Assembly (NCBI GenBank): GCA_951406725.2
Contig: OX597824.1
Span: 52,948,001-53,012,000 of the forward strand
Origin: Octopus vulgaris
Taxonomy: Eukaryota
Direction: 5' to 3'
Length of the DNA stretch: 64,000 nucleotides
Shown here: positions 8,072-59,510 of the stretch, piece by piece
Layout: each line of letters starts with the position of its first letter
How positions within the stretch are numbered: position 1 is the first letter of the stretch
Made by a program: the position numbers and the translations under genes
The notes under the pieces: model-generated
The model's database searches: none
The model's input: the letters and a program-made list of their open reading frames with translations, nothing else
Told to the model about the DNA's origin: nothing

Positions 8072-8475
8072 TCGTTTACTCTTTTACTTGCTTCAGTCAT
8101 TTGACTGCGGCCATGCTGGAGCACCGCCTTTAGTCGAGCAAATCGACCCCGGGACTTATTCTTTGTAAGCCCAGTACTTATTCTATCGGTCTTTTTTGCC
8201 GAACCGCTAAGTGACGGGGACGTAAACACACCAGCATCGGTTGTCAAGCAATGCTAGGGGGACAAACACAGACGCAGAAAGATACACACACATACATATA
8301 TATATATATACATATATACGACAGGCTTCTTTCAGTTTCCGTCTACCAAATCCACTCACAAGGCATTGGTCGGCCCGAGGCTATAGCAGAAGACACTTGC
8401 CCAAGATGCCACGCAGTGGGACTGAACCCGGAACCATGTGGTTCGTAAGCAAGCTAATTACCACACAGCCACTCC
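8071..8475 (-). mobile_element. Full-length OR-like SINE
   Basis: Reverse complement gives A box tggctgtgtgg, B-box-like ggttcagtccc, CORE-like cttgggcaagt and tail ggcggtgctccagcatggccgcagtcaaatgactgaagc. Confidence 0.9.
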
Positions 8476-8976
8476 TTTTATATATCCTTTTATCCTTTTA
8501 TCTTTTTCTAGTTTCAATCATTAGACTGTGGTCATGCTGGAGCACCAACCATACATATATATATATATAACATTTCATCATGTGAAACTAGTAATCCCTA
8601 CATATCTTTTCTCTCTCAATTTTCCCCCTCTTAATTGTTTGTGTTGAAGAACATAGACTCTAAGCATCAAAAGCTTTTCCATTCTTCTAGAGAGCTAAAC
8701 TAACACACCGGCTTGTTCCTTCACCTGTCTTCGTCCTGTGTTTTCTGTAAATTTGAACTCGAAATAGGGAATAATAAACAGTCAGCAACTGAGGAGGAGT
8801 AAGACATCTTTTGGTATTTTGTCGCGTTCTAGTCTCTCGTTACGTGTTTACGTATTTTTCACACGTTGTTGATGTCCTATTCTTATTGGGCATATTTTGA
8901 TAATTTACCTATACTTACCTCTCGTGTTTTTACGTGTTTTTCGCTCATTGATGATGGCCTGTACCTAATGTATATT

Positions 8977-29835: not shown

Positions 29836-32782
29836 ACATCAGAGGACTACTAACACACAGTAACAGGACAAAAGTCCCGTTCCTGAGAGACTTTGTCGTA
29901 TGCAATCAAGCCTTATGCATAGCACTCACAGAAACGCATCTGAAACCGGACATAGCAGATGCGGAATTACACATACCACAGTATGTTGTACTACGGACCG
30001 ACAGGAAAGAAAGGAGTCATGGAGGAGTTGCTATGTACATCCGTGGGGACCTCACACCCCAGGTCCTTTTGTCATACTCAAACTCGGTGTGTGACACACT
30101 AATTGTACACATAAGGCAACTTGATGTAGTTGTGTGTGCTACATATCGCCCTCCAGATGCCCCAAGTCATATGGGCAAGTTTGAGGACTGCCTTTTAAAA
30201 ATAGAAGAAGTTCCAATCACATTAGAACAACACATAAGTGTACTTCTCATGGGAGACTTCAATCTACCGAATGTCAGATGGCCCGAGGGCCTTTCTCTCC
30301 CAGGAATGACAAGATGTGAACGAGGACAGGCGAGGTCCCTCCTGAACCTCATCAAGACCCTGTACATGGAGCAAGTAATACTCCAACCAACCAGAGCAGG
30401 TAACACACTGGATCTCTGCTTCACAAATAATATGGATCTCATCCATAATGTGAAAGTGACACCGACACTACTCTCGGATCACAACATGGTAGAGCTGACC
30501 ATGTACGGGCCAAAAGAGAGCACGGACATGCAGCCTACAAGAAACCCTCAGAATCTTTCCAGCTTGAACTTCAATAAGGCAAACTGGAAACAAATTGAGA
30601 AAGAGATCCTCAAACAAAACTGGCCTGAATGTCTCTCCTCGCCGGACATCGACATGATACTTCAACAATTCATGTCTGTAATGCAAGCCATATGCTACAA
30701 ATGTGTCCCAGAGAGAAAGGCCACTGTACACAAGAACAAAATCCCCAGAGAGAGGAAAATTTTAATGAGACGGCGTACAAAGATTTCAAATCGCCTAAAC
30801 AAACAAATTGAAAGCAGTGAAAAGTCCCGCCTGAAAATAAAACTGTTGGAAATTGAAAATTGTCTGCAACTCTCCCATGAGAAGGAAAGAGCAGACAAAG
30901 AAGCCTGGGCTATAGACAACATAAAAACTAACCCCAGAGCTTTCTACAGGTATGCCAAAGAAACAGCTACGGTGCACTGTAGGATAGGGCCACTCCTTGA
31001 AAAGGATGGCACACTCACAGGAAAACCAATGAGGGTAAGTGAAATACTGAATGAACAATTCAAGAGTGTTTTCACTCCACCCCTTGGGCATTTCCAAATC
31101 AGCAATCCAACTGACTTCTTTACCACTGCAGATATAGAATCAGAGGCGGCGACGATAAATTACATCGATATAAAGGAAGACGATGTAATAAAGGCTATAG
31201 ATGAAATGAAAACAGACTCAGCTATTGGCCCCGATGGATTCCGGCAATCCTCCTAAAAGTATGTAAGAGAGTCCTAGCAAGACCACTGCAGTTCCTCTTT
31301 CAGAGCTTCCTTGCAGCTGGCAAACTTCCAAGAAAACTGAAGGAAGGTAAAATATGCCCTATTCATAAAGGAGGTAGCAGAGCGGAGGCCAAGAACTACA
31401 GACCTATCTCTCTGACCTCACACATCAGCAAGGTCATGGAACGAATAGTCAGAAGGAAACTAATCACCTTCCTTGAAGAAAATGACTTGCTGCCTGACAC
31501 CCAACATGGTTTCCGACCAGGAAGAAGCTGCTTAACTCAGCTCCTGCAGCACTATGACTGGGTGCTGAAACAACTGCTCAACCACTCAAATGTGGAAGTC
31601 ATATATCTCGACTTCGCAAAGGCCTTCGATAAAGTCGATCATGGAATGATATGTCACAAACTGCGTGATCTTGGCATAGTTGGAAAACTAGGAGAATGGC
31701 TTCATGACTTTCTGAAGAATAGAAGTCAGGTGGTAGCAGCCAATGGGGCCACTTCCATTAGCACGCAAATAGTGAGCGGTGTTCCACAGGGCACTGTTTT
31801 GGGACCACTACTGTTCATAATGGCCCTCTCAGACATGCCCTCAGCCACGCGGAGAGCCACGATCACAAGTTATGCAGATGATACAAAAGTTTCACAGGCA
31901 ATACAGAACCCTGAAGACACTAAGCACCTGCAATGTGAGCTGGACGAAATATACAAGTGGGCTGAAAAGAATAGCATGCAGTTCAATGCTGAAAAGTTTC
32001 AAGCTTTATACTATCAGCATGCAAAACTGAATGCAATACCCAATGAATACACTGGACCCGGAGGGATTGCAATCCCAGAGGCACAATCAGTGCGTGACCT
32101 GGGTATTCACATGAGTGATGACGCGACCTTTCATGTACATGTTGCTAAACTGACAATGAAATGTAGACGGCTGGCTGGATGGATTCTTAGAACCTTTAGA
32201 ACAAGAGAACAAGAAACCATGATGGTCCTCTGGAAGACACTTGTCCTAAGCCACTTTGACTATTGCTCTCAGCTATGGTCACCATCCAGTGTCAAGTTGA
32301 TCACAGAACTTGAGGCGATCCAACGAAGCTACACGAAGAAGATAGCCTCTGTGCAGCATATGAGCTACTGGGAAAGACTCAAGAGATTAAAGCTCTATTC
32401 CCTGGAGCGTAGGCGAGAAAGATATGCCATAATATATATCTGGAAGATCCTGGAAGGTCTTGTCCCAGACTTTGGCATCGAGAGTCACACAAATGCCAGA
32501 ACCGGACGCCACTGCGTAGTACCAAGGACTCCAAATTTGCCATCAAGATGTAGGACAAGATATTGTGATAGCCTGGGCTTCAGAGGCCCACGGCTCTTCA
32601 ATATCCTCCCGAAGAACCTGAGGGACCTGCATGGTGTAGATGCGGATGTCTTTAAAGTAGGACTGGATCTCTTCCTGTCAGGTGTCCCGGATGAACCAAC
32701 TTCACGGCAGGAGGTGCAGATGAGGGCAGCTGCATCGAACTCTCTCATGCATCAGATGGCGTTTGCTAAAAAGCATCCGTGA
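29823..32782 (+). pseudogene. LINE ORF2 (APE endonuclease + reverse transcriptase) with a single frameshift
   Basis: APE motifs NIRGL, LTETHL, YRPP, GDFN, LDL, SDH; RT motifs QHGFRPGRSC, YLDFAKAFDKVDH, GVPQGTVLGPLLF, YADD; C-terminal PDEP. One missing base at ~31241 (GPDGF|PAILLK). Confidence 0.93.
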
Positions 32783-38125: not shown

Positions 38126-38419
38126 TTGAGTACGTACATGTTTCTTGATATATCTATATGCATGTATGTATCTATCTATCTATGTAAGCATATATGTACG
38201 TATATATCTGTGTGTATTTGTGTGTGTGTATGTGTGTGTGCACATAAATACATACATATATATCTCTCAAGAAGAATCATTAATCGAACGAAGAACTCAA
38301 TAATTCAAGTAGTGCTAGATTTATATTAAAAATAAAACAGTGATTTCGAAGGTTTTCCAAAACTCACATGTGAAATTGCAAATGAAAAACTGAAATTAAT
38401 TGTATAAAAACAGTTAAGA

Positions 38420-38825
38420 GAGGAGTGGTGTGTGGTAAGTAGCTTGCTTATGAACCACATGGTTCTGGGTTCAATCCCACTGCGTGGCACCTTGGGCAAG
38501 TGTCTTCTACTATACCCTCGGGCTGACCAAAGCCTTGTGAGTGGATTTGGTAGACAGAAACTGAAAGACGCCCTTCGTATATATGTATGTATATATGTAT
38601 GTTTGTCTATATGTTTGTGTCCCTGTGTTTGTCCTCCCAACATCGGTTGACCACCGATGCTGGTGTGCTTACGTCCCCGTAAATAGCGGTTCGGCGAAAG
38701 AGACCGATAGAATAAGTACTAGGCTTACAAAGAATAAGTCCTGTGGTCGATTTGCAAGACTAAAGGCGGTGCTCCAGCATGGCCACAGTCAAATCACTGA
38801 AACAAGTAAAAATAAAGGAGTAAAA
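38420..38825 (+). mobile_element. Full-length OR-like SINE with an unoccupied target motif (aagtagcttgctta)
   Basis: Same family as 8071-8475. Confidence 0.9.
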
Positions 38826-50091: not shown

Positions 50092-50447
50092 CATACATAT
50101 AAAAGTGATGACCTGTAAGTGGACATCCATTATGCTAGAAGAAGATCTGCTATGGTCTTACCACTAAGAAATGAATGTTCTCAAGAAAATAATTCAGCAA
50201 ACGCCAAAGCGTAAGCGAGCAAGACAAATGAAAATATACAAAATATAGATTAATCACATACTATGATTTCGTTGTTAATGCTTACATAATCATTTACGTA
50301 ATCATCCCCGATTACAATTGGAGCCACTTTTCAAAAGCCTTCGTTTTGGCGCGCCAAACTACCGGAAATATTTCTGCAGAAAATAATTCTCTGCAGTGAA
50401 TTTTGCCGGTTAGAGAACATAGCAATTTAAATTTAAATATACATATA

Positions 50448-50590
50448 TACGACGGACTTATTTCAGTTTCCGTCTACCAAACCCACTCACAAGGCTTTGG
50501 TCGGCCCGAAGCTATAGTAGAAGACACTTGCCCAAGGTGCCACGCAGTGGGATTGAACCTAGAACCATGTGGTTCGTAAGCAAGCTGCTT
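50448..50590 (-). mobile_element. OR-like SINE, part downstream of the insertion site (head continues at 57062-57099)
   Basis: The SINE match stops at ...ggttcgtaagcaagctgctt; the remainder (accacacagccactcctacgcc) resumes 6.5 kb away. Confidence 0.9.
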
Positions 50591-52702
50591 TATTTCATTA
50601 AGATTTGCCATAAAGGCATTACAAAGAGTAGTGAGCAGGCTGGACACATACATTGATGAGATGAAAGATGAAACAAGGATGATATTGATGGGAGAAGACA
50701 AAAAACGCCCGCCGATTTTCTGTTTCTCTAAAATATCATTCTTCTTTTTTCCAACAGAAAAAAACAAAGCGAGGGACAGTTTTTACAATTATTGGACTTA
50801 ATAGTCCATGCCAAATAATAACATGCAATAACATACAATAAAATATTCAATATACAAGCAACACTAGTCCATTTACAAAAGAGGCGCTGAGCCTCTTACA
50901 TATTATAAGACTGAGGCTTTTCAACCTCTTGTCAATTTTCCACCTCATCATCGCTTGTGTCTATGTACTCCACCATCTCCCATGCTTGATTCAAGGCGGA
51001 TCCGAGTTGCCGTCACCCGGCCACGAGCGATATTCCTCTTTTAGTCCATTCAGCCTTTGTAACACGCACAACATTATGACCTCCACAGCTATCTGAGGAG
51101 GTCATTCGGGATCTCGTGTGAAGGCCAGATACTCCCTCGTAGTGTTCTTCCATCACTTTTTCCACCTCTCCGCCTCTATAAAAGAAGACCAACAGTTCTT
51201 CGTCCTCTGCCTCCGAAGGGGTCAATTGTATCGTTGGCGGCACAATTCCAGCCAATGGTGTCTCTCCCCCACCCGCCGGTGGCACAACCAACGAGGCTCC
51301 GGAACACTCCAGCGCCATGTCTCTGACTGCTGGCAATGTCCCTTTCCCTTCCTCTTCCTTTTTTTCTTCTCGACTGGGGGAGGGTACGTCTCCTCCGTGA
51401 CCGGGAGATTCGCCTCCCCTCCCTCATCCCCAGGATCCTTCGGTGAGCACCCATTATTGCCTACCTTCTTCCTTTTGCGGCTCTTCTTTGAGGAGTCCTC
51501 CGTCTCCTCGGCCGCCTCTACAGAGGTCTCCATCAACCGCTCCAGGACTTTGTTTTACCTTTGAAGACAGTTATTTTTTATATGGCCAGGCTCCAGGCAC
51601 TGATGACACCTGTTGGGGCGTCCCTCAAGCATCACCGAATACCTAGACCCGGCCATTCTCAAAAAGTCTGGAAATACCAGACTTTCGGCTGACTGGCTTC
51701 ATAGGGTTACAACAGCTTGTGACCCCTCCGAGTCAGTCGCAGGCAGAATATTTACGTTGAGGAGCTTGGTGCTACTGCCACCCAGACCCCGGCGAATAGT
51801 ATATCCTATCCACTCCGGGTGGCAAGCCGCAAACCCAAGCCCTCGTCAACTTCTTCCCACAATAAGTGGGAAGAAACAAAATTTCATTGCCCTCCAGGGG
51901 TTGACTCGCAAATTCCTGATCCACTTCTAGGGAGTCAAACAGCAACCACACGGTTGCGTATTTGACCCCCCGAGTGATAAACTTAATCACTGGCTTAAAT
52001 TCTGCCAACTCACTTTCGATTATATCCTTTCTGAAAACGGCAATGGCGTCGAGGGTCCTAGAGTAGGTCCTCAAAACTGTCTTACTTTCAAGTTCTTTTA
52101 ATCATTATTTGGATGGTGTAAATTCCCACTCCACCAACTTTCCTTTGTTATTTGCCATATTTTTTTTTTAAAACGGTCCAAATATATAGTTCTCAAAATA
52201 CAAAATAATTAAGGAAAAACAAGGAAGAGAAAAAGTCCAAACAAAAAAGAAGGCGAGAAAAAGTGCAAATAAAAAGGGAGGAGAGAAAAAATTTACAGTC
52301 CAATAAAGAGTTTTTTTTAATAAAAGATAGATAAAGAGAGAGCAACAGTTCAAAACGCAGCAAAGGCCACTCAGTACTCCGGGCCAAAATGTTAACACAA
52401 TTATTAAACAGTTAATAAATCATTCCAATTTTCTTCTCATAGATACTCCTTGACAGGAACTATATCGTTGAAAAACTATTTTCATATTTAAGTGAAAAAA
52501 GAAATTTTCACTCAGCCTCAGGTAGACTGGAATCTAGTGAGGACTTCTTGTTTGTAAAAGATAATTGCGGCAGACAAGAGGTCCCCACTAGACCCAAAGA
52601 AATCTTACCTTACGGCTGAGTTTCAAAACTCTTCAATTTAAGACGGCTCCAAAAATACGTCTTACAGCTTCAGTGTCAAACACAACTTTGGCTCGCTCAT
52701 GC
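50591..52702 (-). mobile_element. ORF1-only Tx1/L1-like element, unit C
   Basis: ATG at 52158 (MANNKGKLVEWEFTP...RGVKYATVWLLFD...CGLPPG), disrupted; degenerate zinc knuckle; shared 3' tail ending ...ggcaaatcttaatgaaataaag. Confidence 0.85.
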
Positions 52703-52713
52703 GCAAGCTACTT

Positions 52714-54928
52714 TTATTCATCAAATTGGCCATGAAAGCCGTACACAGATAGGTAGCTGCGGGCTGGACAAAGACATTGATGAGATGAGGATGATAACGA
52801 CAATAATGAACAAAAATGGGAGGGGCACCGTCGCCCGCCGACATATAACCACTCGAAATCGCTGTTCTTTTATTCAATTTTAATCAAAACATATCACAAA
52901 AATTACAAAATTTCCATTCATCTTCCTCTTTCTCATCCGAGCCCCCGACTAAGTTCCCTGCCGCCTGCAGGAAAGCCTGCATCGGCAGGTCGGGGCCCGG
53001 AAAGAGAAAAACAAATTCTTCATTTCCAAAGGTCACCATGACCTCAAAAAGTTCTTTTTGCGTTATGACTTCCACCTGCGGAGACCAACTTGCACAGTCT
53101 GTGCAGACCGAGTCGTAACGTTCTCGGTCGAGAAGACTGTCCAAGAATCTCTCAACAGGCCCTCCCATGTGATAGAAAATGATGGGTTCCACCTCTTCCT
53201 CACGGGGAGGAGCCTCAGCCTGCTCTGTGAGTGGCACAATACCCACTGACGGAGTCTTTTCCACCGGTGGCAGACATTCCACCCGCAGATCATTAGGATC
53301 TGTCGGCGGCACATCAACCTCCACCGACCGTCTCCCATTTTTTCTTTTTCTTCTTTCATTTCTTTTATTTGGGGTTGCGGGAGTCAGGACCTCTATCGGC
53401 CTAACCGGGAGGTCCTTCTCCTCTCCCGCAACCTGTGTTGTCTTTTGGTGAGCAACCATTGTTACTCTCCTTTCGTTTCCTTTTCGAGGAGGCAACCTCC
53501 TCCGTCTCTCCTCCAATGGGGGGCGGAGGGCACCTTTTCTTTTTTCTTCTGCTCCAGGGCCTTTCGTCGGCCCTAGGGGCAGTTCCTTTTGATGTGGCCT
53601 GGTTCCAGGCACAGGTGACACTTGGGGGGGGGGCGACCCTCAATGATCACCGGGTACCTGGCCCCGGCCATTACCAAAAAAACAGGGAATACTAGGTCTC
53701 CGGCCGACTGGGTCCAAAGGGTCAGAACTGCTTTTGACTCTGCCCAATCGGTCGCGGCCTCCACCCTGACACTGAGGAGCTTGGTTCCATTACCGCCCAG
53801 ACCTCTACGAATGGTCTGTTCGATCCATTCAGACCGAACTCCGGGCGGCAGCCCACATACGAAAGCCCTCGTTATTTTCTTCCCACAATATGTGGAAAGG
53901 AACAAAATCTCTTCCCTTTCTAGGGGCTGGCTTGCCGCAGTGCAAGCTTCCTCAGGGGTGTCAAATAGCAACCACACCGTTGCATACTTGACACCCCTGG
54001 ACACAAAGTAATTTTTAGCTGGCAAACATTTTGCCAGCTCTTTATCAATAATACCCTTGTCGAAGAGGGCGATGGCGTCACGCGACCTAGAATAGATCCA
54101 TAGTACCACCGTCCTCCTCTCAATGTTTTCAAGCCACTGCTTGGGTGGGACAACCTCCCACTCCAAAGCGGTGGCTTTGTTTTTCTTCATATTCTCTGCT
54201 ATGAGAACAAAATGCCCACATAAAATAAACACAAAACAACAAAAAATTCTAAACACAGGGAAAATAGAAAAAACTGTTCAATAAATGCAGAAGAAATGAA
54301 AATAATAGTTCATACCAAAATAGTTCATAAAAGAAAGAGAAAAGAAAAGCAACAGTTCACAAAGAGTAAATAAAAATATATAGTTGCAGGCAGAAAAAAA
54401 ATTCCAGGCCACAATGGTACTCCGACCCTATTCGATCCCGGCTACGTTGCAGCTCACAATTTGATGGTAAAATTCAATTCTTCACAATTTGCTTGTAACT
54501 AAGCAAAGAACCCTTACACAGTTCCACCAACAGGAAATCTCTTCTTCAGATCAGTAATTTTCAAAACCTAGTTGATTTGAAAACAACAATAATTCCTTCC
54601 TCAAACTCTTCTCCACTGTAGAGAAACAACAATTCACTCTAAAAAGCTCCGGCTCGCTGCTCCTGCTGTTCAAACAAGCCCACCGGCAACAAGCCACACA
54701 CACACACTCTTGCTTGCCAAACAAGCAACAAATTCACCACCATGAGTAAGCGAAAATACCCCAGAGCTGGGTAGAATATACTGTAATAAAAATAAAAACA
54801 CAATAATTCTACCCAACTCAAAACAAACAAAATCGCTTAACTTGACAACGACCTTTCCTTCAAATACGGAGCCAAACAGCTACACGTCCTTCCTCGTTCA
54901 GGGGAAGCAACCAACTGCCAACAAACAC
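52714..54928 (-). mobile_element. ORF1-only Tx1/L1-like element, unit B
   Basis: ATG at 54190; RRM-like region, then CHLCLEPGHIKRNC (CX2CX4HX4C), a basic linker and a C-terminal domain ending at 52884; has a stop and frameshifts. Confidence 0.88.
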
Positions 54929-54946
54929 TTGGTAAGCAAGCTACTT

Positions 54947-57061
54947 TATTTCATCTAATTTGCCACGAGGGCATTACACAGATAGCAGCTTTGCGGGCTG
55001 GACATAGACATTAATGATATGAATGATGGTAATGCAAAAATGATGATGATGGGAGAAGACGAAAAGCGCCCGCCGACCTTCGCTTCTCTAAAACAATGTT
55101 CCTTTCTCTTTATTTTCAAAAAATCGATATGAGGCTTGAAACCTCTTACACAAAGGAGGCACTAAAACCTCTTACAAACTTCTTTCATTCATTTAATTTG
55201 CCACAAGGGCAGCACATAAATTCATAACAATTCTCCCTGTCAGGTCCCCGAAGCAAAGTGCCTTGCCGCCTGCAGACAACTCTGCGACGACGAGTCGAGG
55301 CATGCAAAGAGAAAAGTAAATTATTTCCTGTTAAAGGTCGCTGCGACCTCTGACAAAATATTTTCCGTTACTACCTCCGCAGCCACCTGCGCAGGACATA
55401 ACGGACTACTTGTGCAGACCGTGTCCATACGTTCTCGGTCATCCAAGCCGTTCAAAAAATTTTCCCCTTCCCTCCCTTGTGGTAAAGGAGAATAAACCAC
55501 TCCTCTTCACAGGAAGGGACCTCACACTGACCAGTCAGTGGCACACTTCCCACTGACGGAGCCTTATCCGCAGGTGGCACACATCCCACCTGCGGCTCTG
55601 TCGGCGGCCTAGGAACACTCGCCGCCCGTCCTCTATTCCTCTTTTTCCTCTTTCTTTATGAGACTGCGAGCCCAAGGGGCTCCGTCGCCGGACGCGGGGG
55701 TCGCTACCCTCCTTCTCCGCCTGTACGTTCTTTGGTGAGCAACCATTGTTGCTCACCATTCTTTTTCTTTTCGTGGAGGCAGCTTCCTCCACGACTTCCA
55801 CCGTCTCCCCCTTCAATGAAGGGGCGGCGTGCACTTTCTCTTTTTCCTGCCCCAGGATCCTACTTTGGTCTCTGGGGCAGTTCTTCTTAATGTGGCCGGT
55901 CTCCAGGCACAGGTGACATTTGGGGGGGGGCGTCCCTCAAGCATCACCGGATACCTGGATCCGGCCATCCTCAAGAAATCTGGAAAAACCAGACTTTCGG
56001 TTGATTGGGTCCATAGGGTCAAAACAGCTTTCGACCCCTCTCAATCAGCCGCAGGCAACACTTTTACATTCAGCAGCTTGGTGCTGCTACCACCAACCCC
56101 GGCGGATAGAGACCTCTATCCACTCGGGCTCAACTCCGGGTGGCAGTCCGCAGATCCAAGCCTTCAATAGTTTCTTTCCACAGTAGTTTGGAAGAAACAA
56201 TATTTCCTCACCCTCGAGGGGCTGACTTGCAAAATCGCAAGCTTCTTGTGGGGAGTCAAATAGCAACCGTACCGTTGCATATTTCACTCCCCTTGCAATA
56301 AATTTAATGGCTGGCATGTAGTCTGCCAGCTCGTTCAAAATTGTGGCCTTCGGAAAGACGGCTATGGTGTCGAGCGACTTCGAATAAGTCCTCAACACCA
56401 CGGTCTTCTCCTCCATCTCTTTTAAATATTTTTTGGGAGGTGTCAACTCCCACACAAGAAATTCCTTTGCCATTTTAACACAAAGTTCAATTACAGTTCA
56501 AAATGTAAGAAAATAAAATAAGACACAAAGAAAGAAAAACACAACAGAAGGGAAGAAATAAAAATAGAAATAGCAGTTCAAAAAAGTTCTTTTTTTTTTA
56601 ATAAATGATAGCTCGAAGAAGATAGTTCAAATCCAGATAAAGGAATTAATTTTTTCGGCCAAAAAAGGTACTCCTGGCCAAATGGCCAATTGGTAAAATA
56701 CCTTGCAAAAACAATCCTTGGTAATCCTTGGTACTCCGTGGTAAATCCAGTGGAAAACACAAAGACAATTTCAAAACAAATTATTTTTTTCGGAGGGACT
56801 ACGCCTCCTCAATAACACAATTCTCACTGCAAAGTGAGTCTCTAAAGGCAGCCACAGGCAGGAAAATGTCTGGCGCAGAGTGGAGTCTATTACTCACCAA
56901 AACAATATTAAATACAGAGCAACAAACTCCACTAAGCCCTCACAAATATAAAACAAACGCCTACCTGTAGTCGAGCCTCAAAATTCAATATTTCACGACG
57001 AACGACGTGACATCAAGCAGCAATAACTCCCCGCCAAAAAAACACGTGCGACTTCAACAGA
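54947..57061 (-). mobile_element. ORF1-only Tx1/L1-like element, unit A
   Basis: ATG at 56473 (MAKEFLVWELTPP...), CHLCLETGHIKKNC, same C-terminal domain and 3' tail as units B and C; frameshifted. Confidence 0.88.
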
Positions 57062-57099
57062 GGTTAGCAAGCTATTTACCACACAGCCACTCCTACGCC
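57062..57099 (-). mobile_element. 5' head of the interrupted OR-like SINE
   Basis: Reverse complement ggcgtaggagtggctgtgtggtaaatagcttgctaacc. Confidence 0.85.
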
Positions 57100-57309
57100 T
57101 ATAAAAATTATTAACAACCTTAATCGATTTTCGAATCATATTGGGTTCTTATCAGGGGCGTCTACATCATTCTGATAGTCTATTTTTGTAATAACAATCA
57201 AACCCTAAGTCTTTAAAACTATATACCAAGACCAACAAGTATTTTCATTAAATCATTAAATAAACTAACAGCAGAAATAAAACCTTCGCGAACATAAGTA
57301 CTATGGTAA

Positions 57310-58999: not shown

Positions 59000-59510
59000 T
59001 TAAGCAGAGTCACTCGCACCCACCTTTCTTACCACAGCCTTCTATCTTTTGTCAAACACATCTCGCGACAGTCATCTCCTCTCCAGACCTATCTTGCTCG
59101 TCAGATGATATCTGAAAAAAGTGAGCAATCTGGGGTCAGAGATGAAGGCTCCGGTCACGAGTCCTTGCAGTTTAGTCTTCCAAACAAACTCTTTCAACAC
59201 TGCCACGGTAAGGAGAGAACATACCTCACCTTCTATTGAGAGTCCGGGGGGGGGCATAATCTTTATTATAGATTCAGGTGATAGCTGTACTCTGCCTAGG
59301 TGTGACAACACGTGTTCAACGTAAACTATCACGCCTGAAAGCTTCCGACAGTGTAAAATAGCGTGCGGGACAATTTCATCGTCCAGCCCACATCTTGGAC
59401 GTGTCGGTGGTACTGACATTCCATGCCTAGATAAACCTATCGCGAACAGGTAAAGTGTTCCTATAGCACTGCCAGGTCAGGGACTTTTGGCAATTATCCA
59501 AATACCCCGA
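59000..59510 (-). mobile_element. Tx1/L1-type ORF2 C-terminal (zinc-binding) fragment
   Basis: LDNCQKSLTWQCYRNTLPVRDR...RPRCGLDDEIVPHAILHC...LKEFVWK...IGLERR resembles the zf-RVT region of Tx1/L1 ORF2. Confidence 0.75.

Follow-up and report, generated by a model that had tools for sequence, protein, structure and literature searches.

Retrotransposons that encode only an open reading frame 1 (ORF1) protein are known from both mammals and Drosophila. HAL1, which is mammalian, has a coiled-coil-type (Transposase_22) ORF1 with a poly(A) tail and is not known to be site-specific, whereas HeT-A is an ORF1-only element of Drosophila telomeres; in R2, the 5' junctions are formed from co-transcribed target. 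HAL1 has been described as a non-autonomous L1-group derivative that encodes only ORF1p and arose more than once (Kojima 2018, PMC5753468), and the Drosophila ORF1-only telomeric retrotransposons have been described as needing a partner ORF2, arising repeatedly, diversifying as clades and forming head-to-tail arrays with the partner (PMC13534243). Tx1-clade elements are reported to reside in other transposons, such as Tx1 in Tx1D of Xenopus and Tx1-Mar in Mariner-N4_AMi, together with SINEU, in crocodilians (Kojima 2015, PMC4494074), and for R1Bm and SART1Bm it has been proposed that target-like RNA bases anneal to the nicked target DNA and sharpen the junctions (PMC7265360). A window of 64,000 nucleotides from Octopus vulgaris (assembly GCA_951406725.2, contig OX597824.1, positions 52,948,001 to 53,012,000 of the forward strand; window coordinates count from its first letter) contains three ORF1-only units, here named U1, U2 and U3, standing head to tail inside a short interspersed element (SINE).

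On the minus strand, from 57099 to 50428, the SINE head (22 nt) is followed by U3, U2 and U1, each behind a copy of the target, and then by a last target copy with the SINE body (Table 1); in the intact SINE copies of the window (~8297-8480 and ~38420-38600), head and body are contiguous at the insertion base. We assign a probability of about 0.85 to the reading that U1-U3 are dispersed ORF1-only elements without long terminal repeats (non-LTR elements) at one base of the SINE, likely inserted serially by the endonuclease and reverse transcriptase (RT) of a two-ORF long interspersed element (LINE) of the L1/Tx1 group. What carries it are direct observations, namely site specificity, the lack of ORF2, the existence of a partner, a common 3' end, stacks of mixed make-up, selection acting on ORF1 and a 5' motif fixed within the family. 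The original prediction, made from the letters of the window alone, had the SINE split by three head-to-tail units with its motif at four junctions, and all four lie exactly where it placed them. The SINE is tentatively taken to be OR-like, the candidate families being the tRNA-derived OR1, OR2 and OK SINEs of octopus. OR1 has been described as an octopus CORE-SINE (PMC4824008). No tRNA was detected in the SINE: ARAGORN reported 0 genes in the window, and Rfam gave no tRNA match on the copy at 38400-38620.

Pairwise, U1-U3 are 68-74% alike in the coding part and ~77-80% in the tail, with poorly alignable 5' untranslated regions (UTRs); the U1 5' UTR is 76% like the L149-type one, and the U1 5' end is ~10 nt shorter than those of its relatives. 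Because the nearest relatives of each lie at other genomic loci (96.2% for U3, 87.5% for U2, 85.6% for U1), the units are not a local tandem duplication, as their divergence had already suggested. The predicted lack of RT and endonuclease is likewise borne out, no ORF2 match with E below 0.28 being present in 50501-57150. A single ORF1 per unit was also foreseen and is there, but all three are broken by frameshifts or stops; in U2, the frame shifts after the N-terminal 205 aa and the C-terminal part runs to 52884. The conserved tail of ~150 nt ending in aataaa needed a smaller correction, as the last one or two A are the first target bases, and no poly(A) is found at the junctions.

The preference for this base extends across the genome. 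Searches with the U1, U2 and U3 tails returned 1,564, 680 and 1,546 candidates, of which ~40 each were scored and the best 30 examined, giving 29 non-self loci per unit and 87 in total. The target (12 nt, at most 3 mismatches) directly follows the tail at 75 of the 87, against 1.0% of window positions in the identical test (182/18,278), and the SINE body follows at 69; neither the 6-nt core nor the SINE body is present at 8. The insertion point lies between SINE bases 22 and 23. Moreover, 53 insertions, all complete and between 42 bp and 5.45 kb long, sit between SINE head and body with matching target copies of 6-21 nt (mode 15-16). Short copies that are truncated at the 5' end and flanked by duplications are what target-primed reverse transcription usually leaves. 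The proposal of a site-specific family is thereby upheld. Some 3' junctions (L016, L067, L280) show a repeat of the final 5-8 nt of the tail, which is what slippage would leave when reverse transcription starts. In addition, L172/L224 have, ~240 bp upstream of the match, a short SINE-like element with a LINE-type tail, which has entered the same target and is flanked by a duplication of 14 nt.

The lead to a partner was an ORF2 end with a like tail and target adjoining an ORF1-only copy (L169). It belongs to a LINE of 5.45 kb at the same base, with an ORF1 and an ORF2 of 1132 aa that contains an apurinic/apyrimidinic endonuclease (APE), RT and zf-RVT; 40 tail matches at 99-100% indicate a young family, and 28 of 29 examined copies start directly behind the SINE head. 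A search for an autonomous element with a matching tail had been recommended, and this LINE has in common with U1 and U3 only the last 37-39 nt of the tail, 81-85% identical. Its ORF2 has human L1 ORF2p as the best PDB match (E 1e-66; R2, E 1e-20), its RT region scores 65% against an Argonauta protein, and its ORF1 has a CCHC knuckle by Pfam, a pair of RNA recognition motifs (RRMs) being predicted for the homologous ORF1-only protein. On these likenesses the LINE is assigned to the L1/Tx1 group and to that level only, with no named Tx1, Keno, Kibi or Koshi among the RT matches. Mixed stacks, in which LINE and ORF1-only copies stand together, occur at C1:99.58 Mb, C1:223.7 Mb, C3:44.27 Mb and C17:0.30 Mb. 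Where sequence-specific elements are defined by more than 20% of flanks having one sequence type (PMC4494074), the values here are 75/87 for the ORF1-only tails and 28/29 for the LINE. An ORF2 3' fragment in the window (59018-59507, minus strand), 57-72% identical to the SINE-targeting LINE and without an adjacent target, was tried as another lead to the partner; it represents 5.3-kb LINEs with their own arrays, which were rejected because none of 30 loci carry U1-U3 tails. Other 5.3-kb two-ORF families of the L1/Tx1 group, with open frames of 1140-1148 aa, occur as head-to-tail arrays of 5-9 copies that are joined at other motifs (L121-L127 and L131-L132; C5:29.18 Mb, C2:73.04 Mb, C9:59.2 Mb).

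Exact-pattern targets in the genome number 38,579 preceded by T and 891 preceded by another base; element tails account for 13 of the first 30 examined among the latter, and occupancy of the target is estimated at about 1%. In the young ORF1-only L149 subfamily, another element lies directly downstream in 26 of the 30 best copies and, counted by site, it is of a different family at 15 of 19. Stacks were seen at 6 of 34 examined LINE sites (38 listed), and the U1-U3 families have the target with no SINE body downstream at 8 of 87 loci; in the stacks at C2:106.49 Mb and C4:76.2 Mb, another element takes the place of the SINE body. In 9 stacks the unit nearest the head is more similar to its relatives than the unit nearest the body, and in 1 it is less similar (p 0.02, counting differences of at least 1 point; 6 further stacks differ less), so the youngest unit tends to be the one beside the SINE head, as in the window, where head-adjacent U3 is the youngest of three. 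Together with the mixed stacks, this order favors repeated insertion at a regenerated site, as had been proposed. Stacks could instead be non-sequential, either multi-unit read-through transcripts copied whole or products of unequal crossing-over, an origin with which the lack of poly(A) between units, the recurrence of the order 'L149-type, then L281-type' at ~9 sites, runs of 3-7 near-identical units and the resemblance of the C17:68.7 Mb stack to a duplicated two-unit block all agree. Homogeneous runs may still be explained in this way, but as a general account it is unlikely, because one young subfamily stands upstream of at least three unrelated partner families, and of partners that differ in age (at C1:143.27 Mb, 99.9% upstream of 95.9%), and the relatives of U1, U2 and U3 mostly have the SINE body directly downstream (69/87).

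For the bias towards occupied sites, candidate causes are an open promoter at the 5' end of the resident element, release of the site from RNA polymerase III (Pol III) factors after the A and B boxes were parted, pairing with the read-through flank, and co-mobilised dimers. It is tempting to regard the SINE head as a landing pad shared by a guild of one or more LINEs, two ORF1-only lineages and a passenger SINE, where landing would be self-reinforcing (~50-fold hotter per insertion) and partly RNA-guided by a target-pairing motif in the tail; this wider proposal is tentative, with odds somewhat worse than even.

The junctions suggest how the target is rebuilt. The 5' target copy ends in CTAAC in every one of the 26 full-length LINE copies, whereas the 3' target copy has TTA in 11 of them. 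As the copies are 0-2% apart and cannot have gained 11 one-way changes, the CTAAC bases likely came from the RNA, in which case the RNA start would lie inside the target copy; the 5' junction is a hybrid target-site duplication (TSD). The distal 5-8 nt of the LINE 5' motif are thus family-fixed and not copied from the local target, and L286 and L044, relatives of U3 and U2, have the same 5' motif ends as these; the two truncated LINE copies behind a head match the local target over ~9 nt (L321) and ~15 nt (L335). The idea of repeated insertion at a regenerated target is supported, and the objection raised in advance, that the junction motif is intrinsic to the element's end, is partly true. 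Extended to its full form, in which motif and SINE body are merely the 3' end of a composite element inserting anywhere, the objection draws on the SINE body as 3' flank of most copies and on the fixed distal 5' motif, and it is highly improbable, since a SINE head precedes both the full-length copies and 5'-truncated ones down to 42-47 bp, and the downstream SINE varies by locus while LINE copies are 98-100% alike. An extra T, in either of two places and in both 5' sublineages, was observed in the 5' target copy of 11 of the 26 full-length LINE copies (L276, L278, L320, L322, L326, L328, L330, L333, L334, L336, L338).

The ORF1 protein search gave 150 scored matches at >=61% identity, of which ~50 were examined. 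Open frames of 409-427 aa are found in many of the examined copies, and among 76 distinct knuckle contexts, 73 of them judgeable, tail and target follow within 1.2 kb in 67, and in none does an ORF2 stand between ORF1 and tail. The dispersed family has fixed ends, a shared length of ~2.0-2.3 kb with shared tails at dozens of loci, and 5'-truncated copies. AlphaFold (13-row alignment, pLDDT 78.6) predicts two alpha/beta domains plus the knuckle, in agreement with the RRM-like region and CCHC knuckle noted at the outset; Pfam finds zf-CCHC and no Transposase_22. The best Foldseek matches are tandem-RRM proteins (hnRNP A1, E 2e-4), although the RRM domain arrangement is not matched, given a TM of ~0.3. 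These predictions fit type I ORF1p (RRM plus CCHC), which is described as typical of Tx1 in non-mammalian animals (PMC5203782). A likeness to the RNA-binding domains of ZCCHC3 (ESM Atlas, 0.90) was set aside, Pfam giving no confirmation. Among 5,710 candidates, a single named protein proved to be homologous to ORF1, with 61% identity; it comes from Octopus sinensis and, like the Argonauta match, points to an octopus host.

In the first 205 codons, the ratio of nonsynonymous to synonymous substitution rates (dN/dS) is 0.09-0.54 in 55 pairs of 11 copies with open frames, with 54 of 55 bootstrap intervals below 1 and dS up to 2.3; as far as codon comparisons go, the check recommended for ORF1 shows the N-terminal domain to be under purifying selection. 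In a tree of 21 ORF1 domains, the 9 rows of family A form one clade (100/100) on a long branch, with a warning from the tool of long-branch joins. The view of the units as dead two-ORF LINEs that have suffered local deletions, suggested by the broken window copies and by ORF1 homology with the two-ORF elements (24-27% identity; the ORF1-only family lacks ~50 N-terminal residues found there), is very improbable in view of the shared length and tails, the open frames, the purifying selection and the separate, fully supported ORF1 clade among the copies examined. A second ORF1-only lineage (L279:7775-8998, minus strand; also L265 and L379), ~1.5 kb long with a 408-aa frame, has the same target and 3' hairpin and no target-complementary motif near its end, and its ORF1 groups with the two-ORF elements, apart from family A. 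Mosaic subfamilies also occur (L149, L280, L154, L281), the same pairs having N-terminal dS of 1.5-1.8 and C-terminal dS of 0.17-0.19. The L149-type element is covered by contigs of four runs, whose RNA origin is a guess.

Two further signals were recognized in the tails. A TGCC-N5-GGCA hairpin, which lies within the stretch common to the LINE and to U1 and U3, is present in 124 of 158 parsed tails (165 total); tails of the L206 type show one compensated pair at the hairpin end. When tails (-100 to -30) of 165 distinct junctions were compared with the reverse complement of the target, the longest match averaged 6.7 nt, against 4.5 nt in shuffles; this target-complementary motif lies at ~-45 in family A and, in unrelated context, at ~-80 in three types of LINE tail. 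At 17 of 17 junctions into the AAGAAG variant of the SINE, the tail has the matching CTTC form; these junctions represent few events rather than 17 because they fall in about two tail types. The 148 AAGTAG junctions include 79 with CTAC, 4 with CTTC and 65 in whose scanned stretch neither form occurs. Folds differ as to whether read-through target bases pair with the motif, several showing such pairing and others not. A role for the motif in insertion is hypothetical, and it is not obligatory, since it is missing near the end of the second ORF1-only lineage.

If U1-U3 were inserted serially by the partner's enzymes, the partner endonuclease would nick the bottom strand between SINE bases 22 and 23, and the element RNA, without poly(A) at the junction, would be recognised through its 3' hairpin, with priming probably through pairing of read-through target bases. 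The transcript would begin inside the upstream target copy, and its cDNA end would anneal to the top-strand overhang and rebuild the target beside the SINE head. The next element would mostly enter this rebuilt head-side site, and the stack would lengthen on its head side. ORF1p probably acts in cis, packaging the RNA that encodes it, and the retention of ORF1 would follow from this.

Several observations weigh against this account. Twelve of the 87 tail matches lack the 12-nt target, one LINE copy (L325) does not follow a SINE head, and the U2-type hairpin pairs in another register. The C-terminal part of ORF1 is mostly indistinguishable from neutral across subfamilies, the copies for dN/dS were chosen for open frames and their pairs are not independent, and the age proxy in stacks, identity to relatives, depends on which copies were examined. 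Moreover, the ORF1 of the partner LINE and that of the ORF1-only family are ~1.9 substitutions per site apart between groups, and ORF2 also lies upstream of other tail types (L302, L303). Trans-mobilisation is inferred from the shared site, tail and stacks; this LINE would have moved U1-U3, or the ORF2p donor may instead have been an older relative of it.

Compared with the known systems, the octopus elements are like HAL1, as described in PMC5753468, in being ORF1p-only L1-group derivatives of repeated origin, with two ORF1-only lineages in octopus, and unlike it in their two predicted RRMs plus CCHC knuckle, lack of poly(A) and fixed site; they would be classed as HAL1-type ORF1-only LINE derivatives, not HAL1 proper. 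With the Drosophila telomeric elements, as portrayed in PMC13534243, they share ORF1-only coding, presumed partner dependence, repeated origin, clades and head-to-tail arrays with the partner, but the former are of the Jockey clade at chromosome ends and the latter of the L1/Tx1 group at tens of thousands of interspersed SINE sites. Tx1-Mar and SINEU offer a sequence-specific APE-type LINE whose target is another repeat, passengers that share this target and tandem insertions that sandwich the TSD; the octopus target is one base in a SINE head, and the passengers are protein-coding. Unlike here, the account of Tx1 in PMC4494074 reports, where it treats targets, no occupied-site preference and no target-complementary tail motif. 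R1Bm and SART1Bm, as presented in PMC7265360, are autonomous and reside in ribosomal DNA or telomeres, and the octopus motif is complementary, not identical, to the target. The component parts thus have precedents (HAL1, HeT-A-like elements, Tx1-Mar/SINEU), and no paper on a SINE-head target and no published SINE-targeting Tx1 or ORF1-only family in octopus was found, although Repbase and subscription journals may describe these families; in the article PMC13282606 itself, Tx1 appears only in a table, and the words 'target' and 'nested' are absent.

The usual dependence of SINEs on LINEs is here reversed, the SINE supplying ~39,000 exact safe sites, and an insertion after base 22 would separate the A and B boxes predicted for it. 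The system lends itself to asking why elements that are not autonomous retain a selected ORF1. It also provides an APE endonuclease, young and with an open frame, that is specific to a single base and whose RNA signals (the hairpin at the 3' end, the motif complementary to the target and the 5' end that bears the target) could be altered individually. The bias for occupied sites, if caused by the site, would be a targeting rule that we have not found described.

Table 1. Layout of the split SINE and its three ORF1-only units in the window.
Feature	Positions	Strand	Remarks
SINE head, first 22 nt	57078..57099	-	Same head on intact copies; holds a putative A-box-like motif
5' target copy	57062..57077	-	Hybrid TSD; distal CTAAC likely element-borne
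U3, ORF1-only	54947..57061	-	2115 nt; youngest of three (96.2% to nearest relatives)
U3 ORF1	55243..56473	-	Frameshift-broken; 71-87% amino-acid identity to open copy in L286
U3 3' tail	54947..55100	-	Target-complementary motif 54984-54994; TGCC-N5-GGCA hairpin 54961-54973
U3/U2 junction	54929..54946	-	18-nt target copy; equal length in U2 relative L044
U2, ORF1-only	52714..54928	-	2215 nt
U2 ORF1, N-terminal 205 aa	53573..54190	-	Two predicted RRM-like domains and CCHC knuckle
U2 3' tail	52714..52860	-	Target-complementary motif 52751-52760
U2/U1 junction	52703..52713	-	11-nt target copy (gcaagctactt); abuts slightly 5'-truncated U1
U1, ORF1-only	50591..52702	-	2112 nt; ORF1 ~52158-50935 with stops and frameshifts
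U1 3' tail	50591..50740	-	Hairpin 50606-50618
3' target copy	50576..50590	-	Start of remaining SINE
SINE body	50428..50575	-	91% to 8297-8455, 90% to 38437-38599; holds a putative B-box-like motif

Elsewhere, the target SINE itself forms arrays. Six head-to-tail partial copies with a spacing of 167-189 bp were observed at L301:500-1600, and a target-SINE array at C1:2.10 Mb was considered as a stack of target insertions and rejected, its joints being TA-rich stretches and not the target base. The window also contains a distant RT fragment at 31286-31891 on the plus strand (26% identity).

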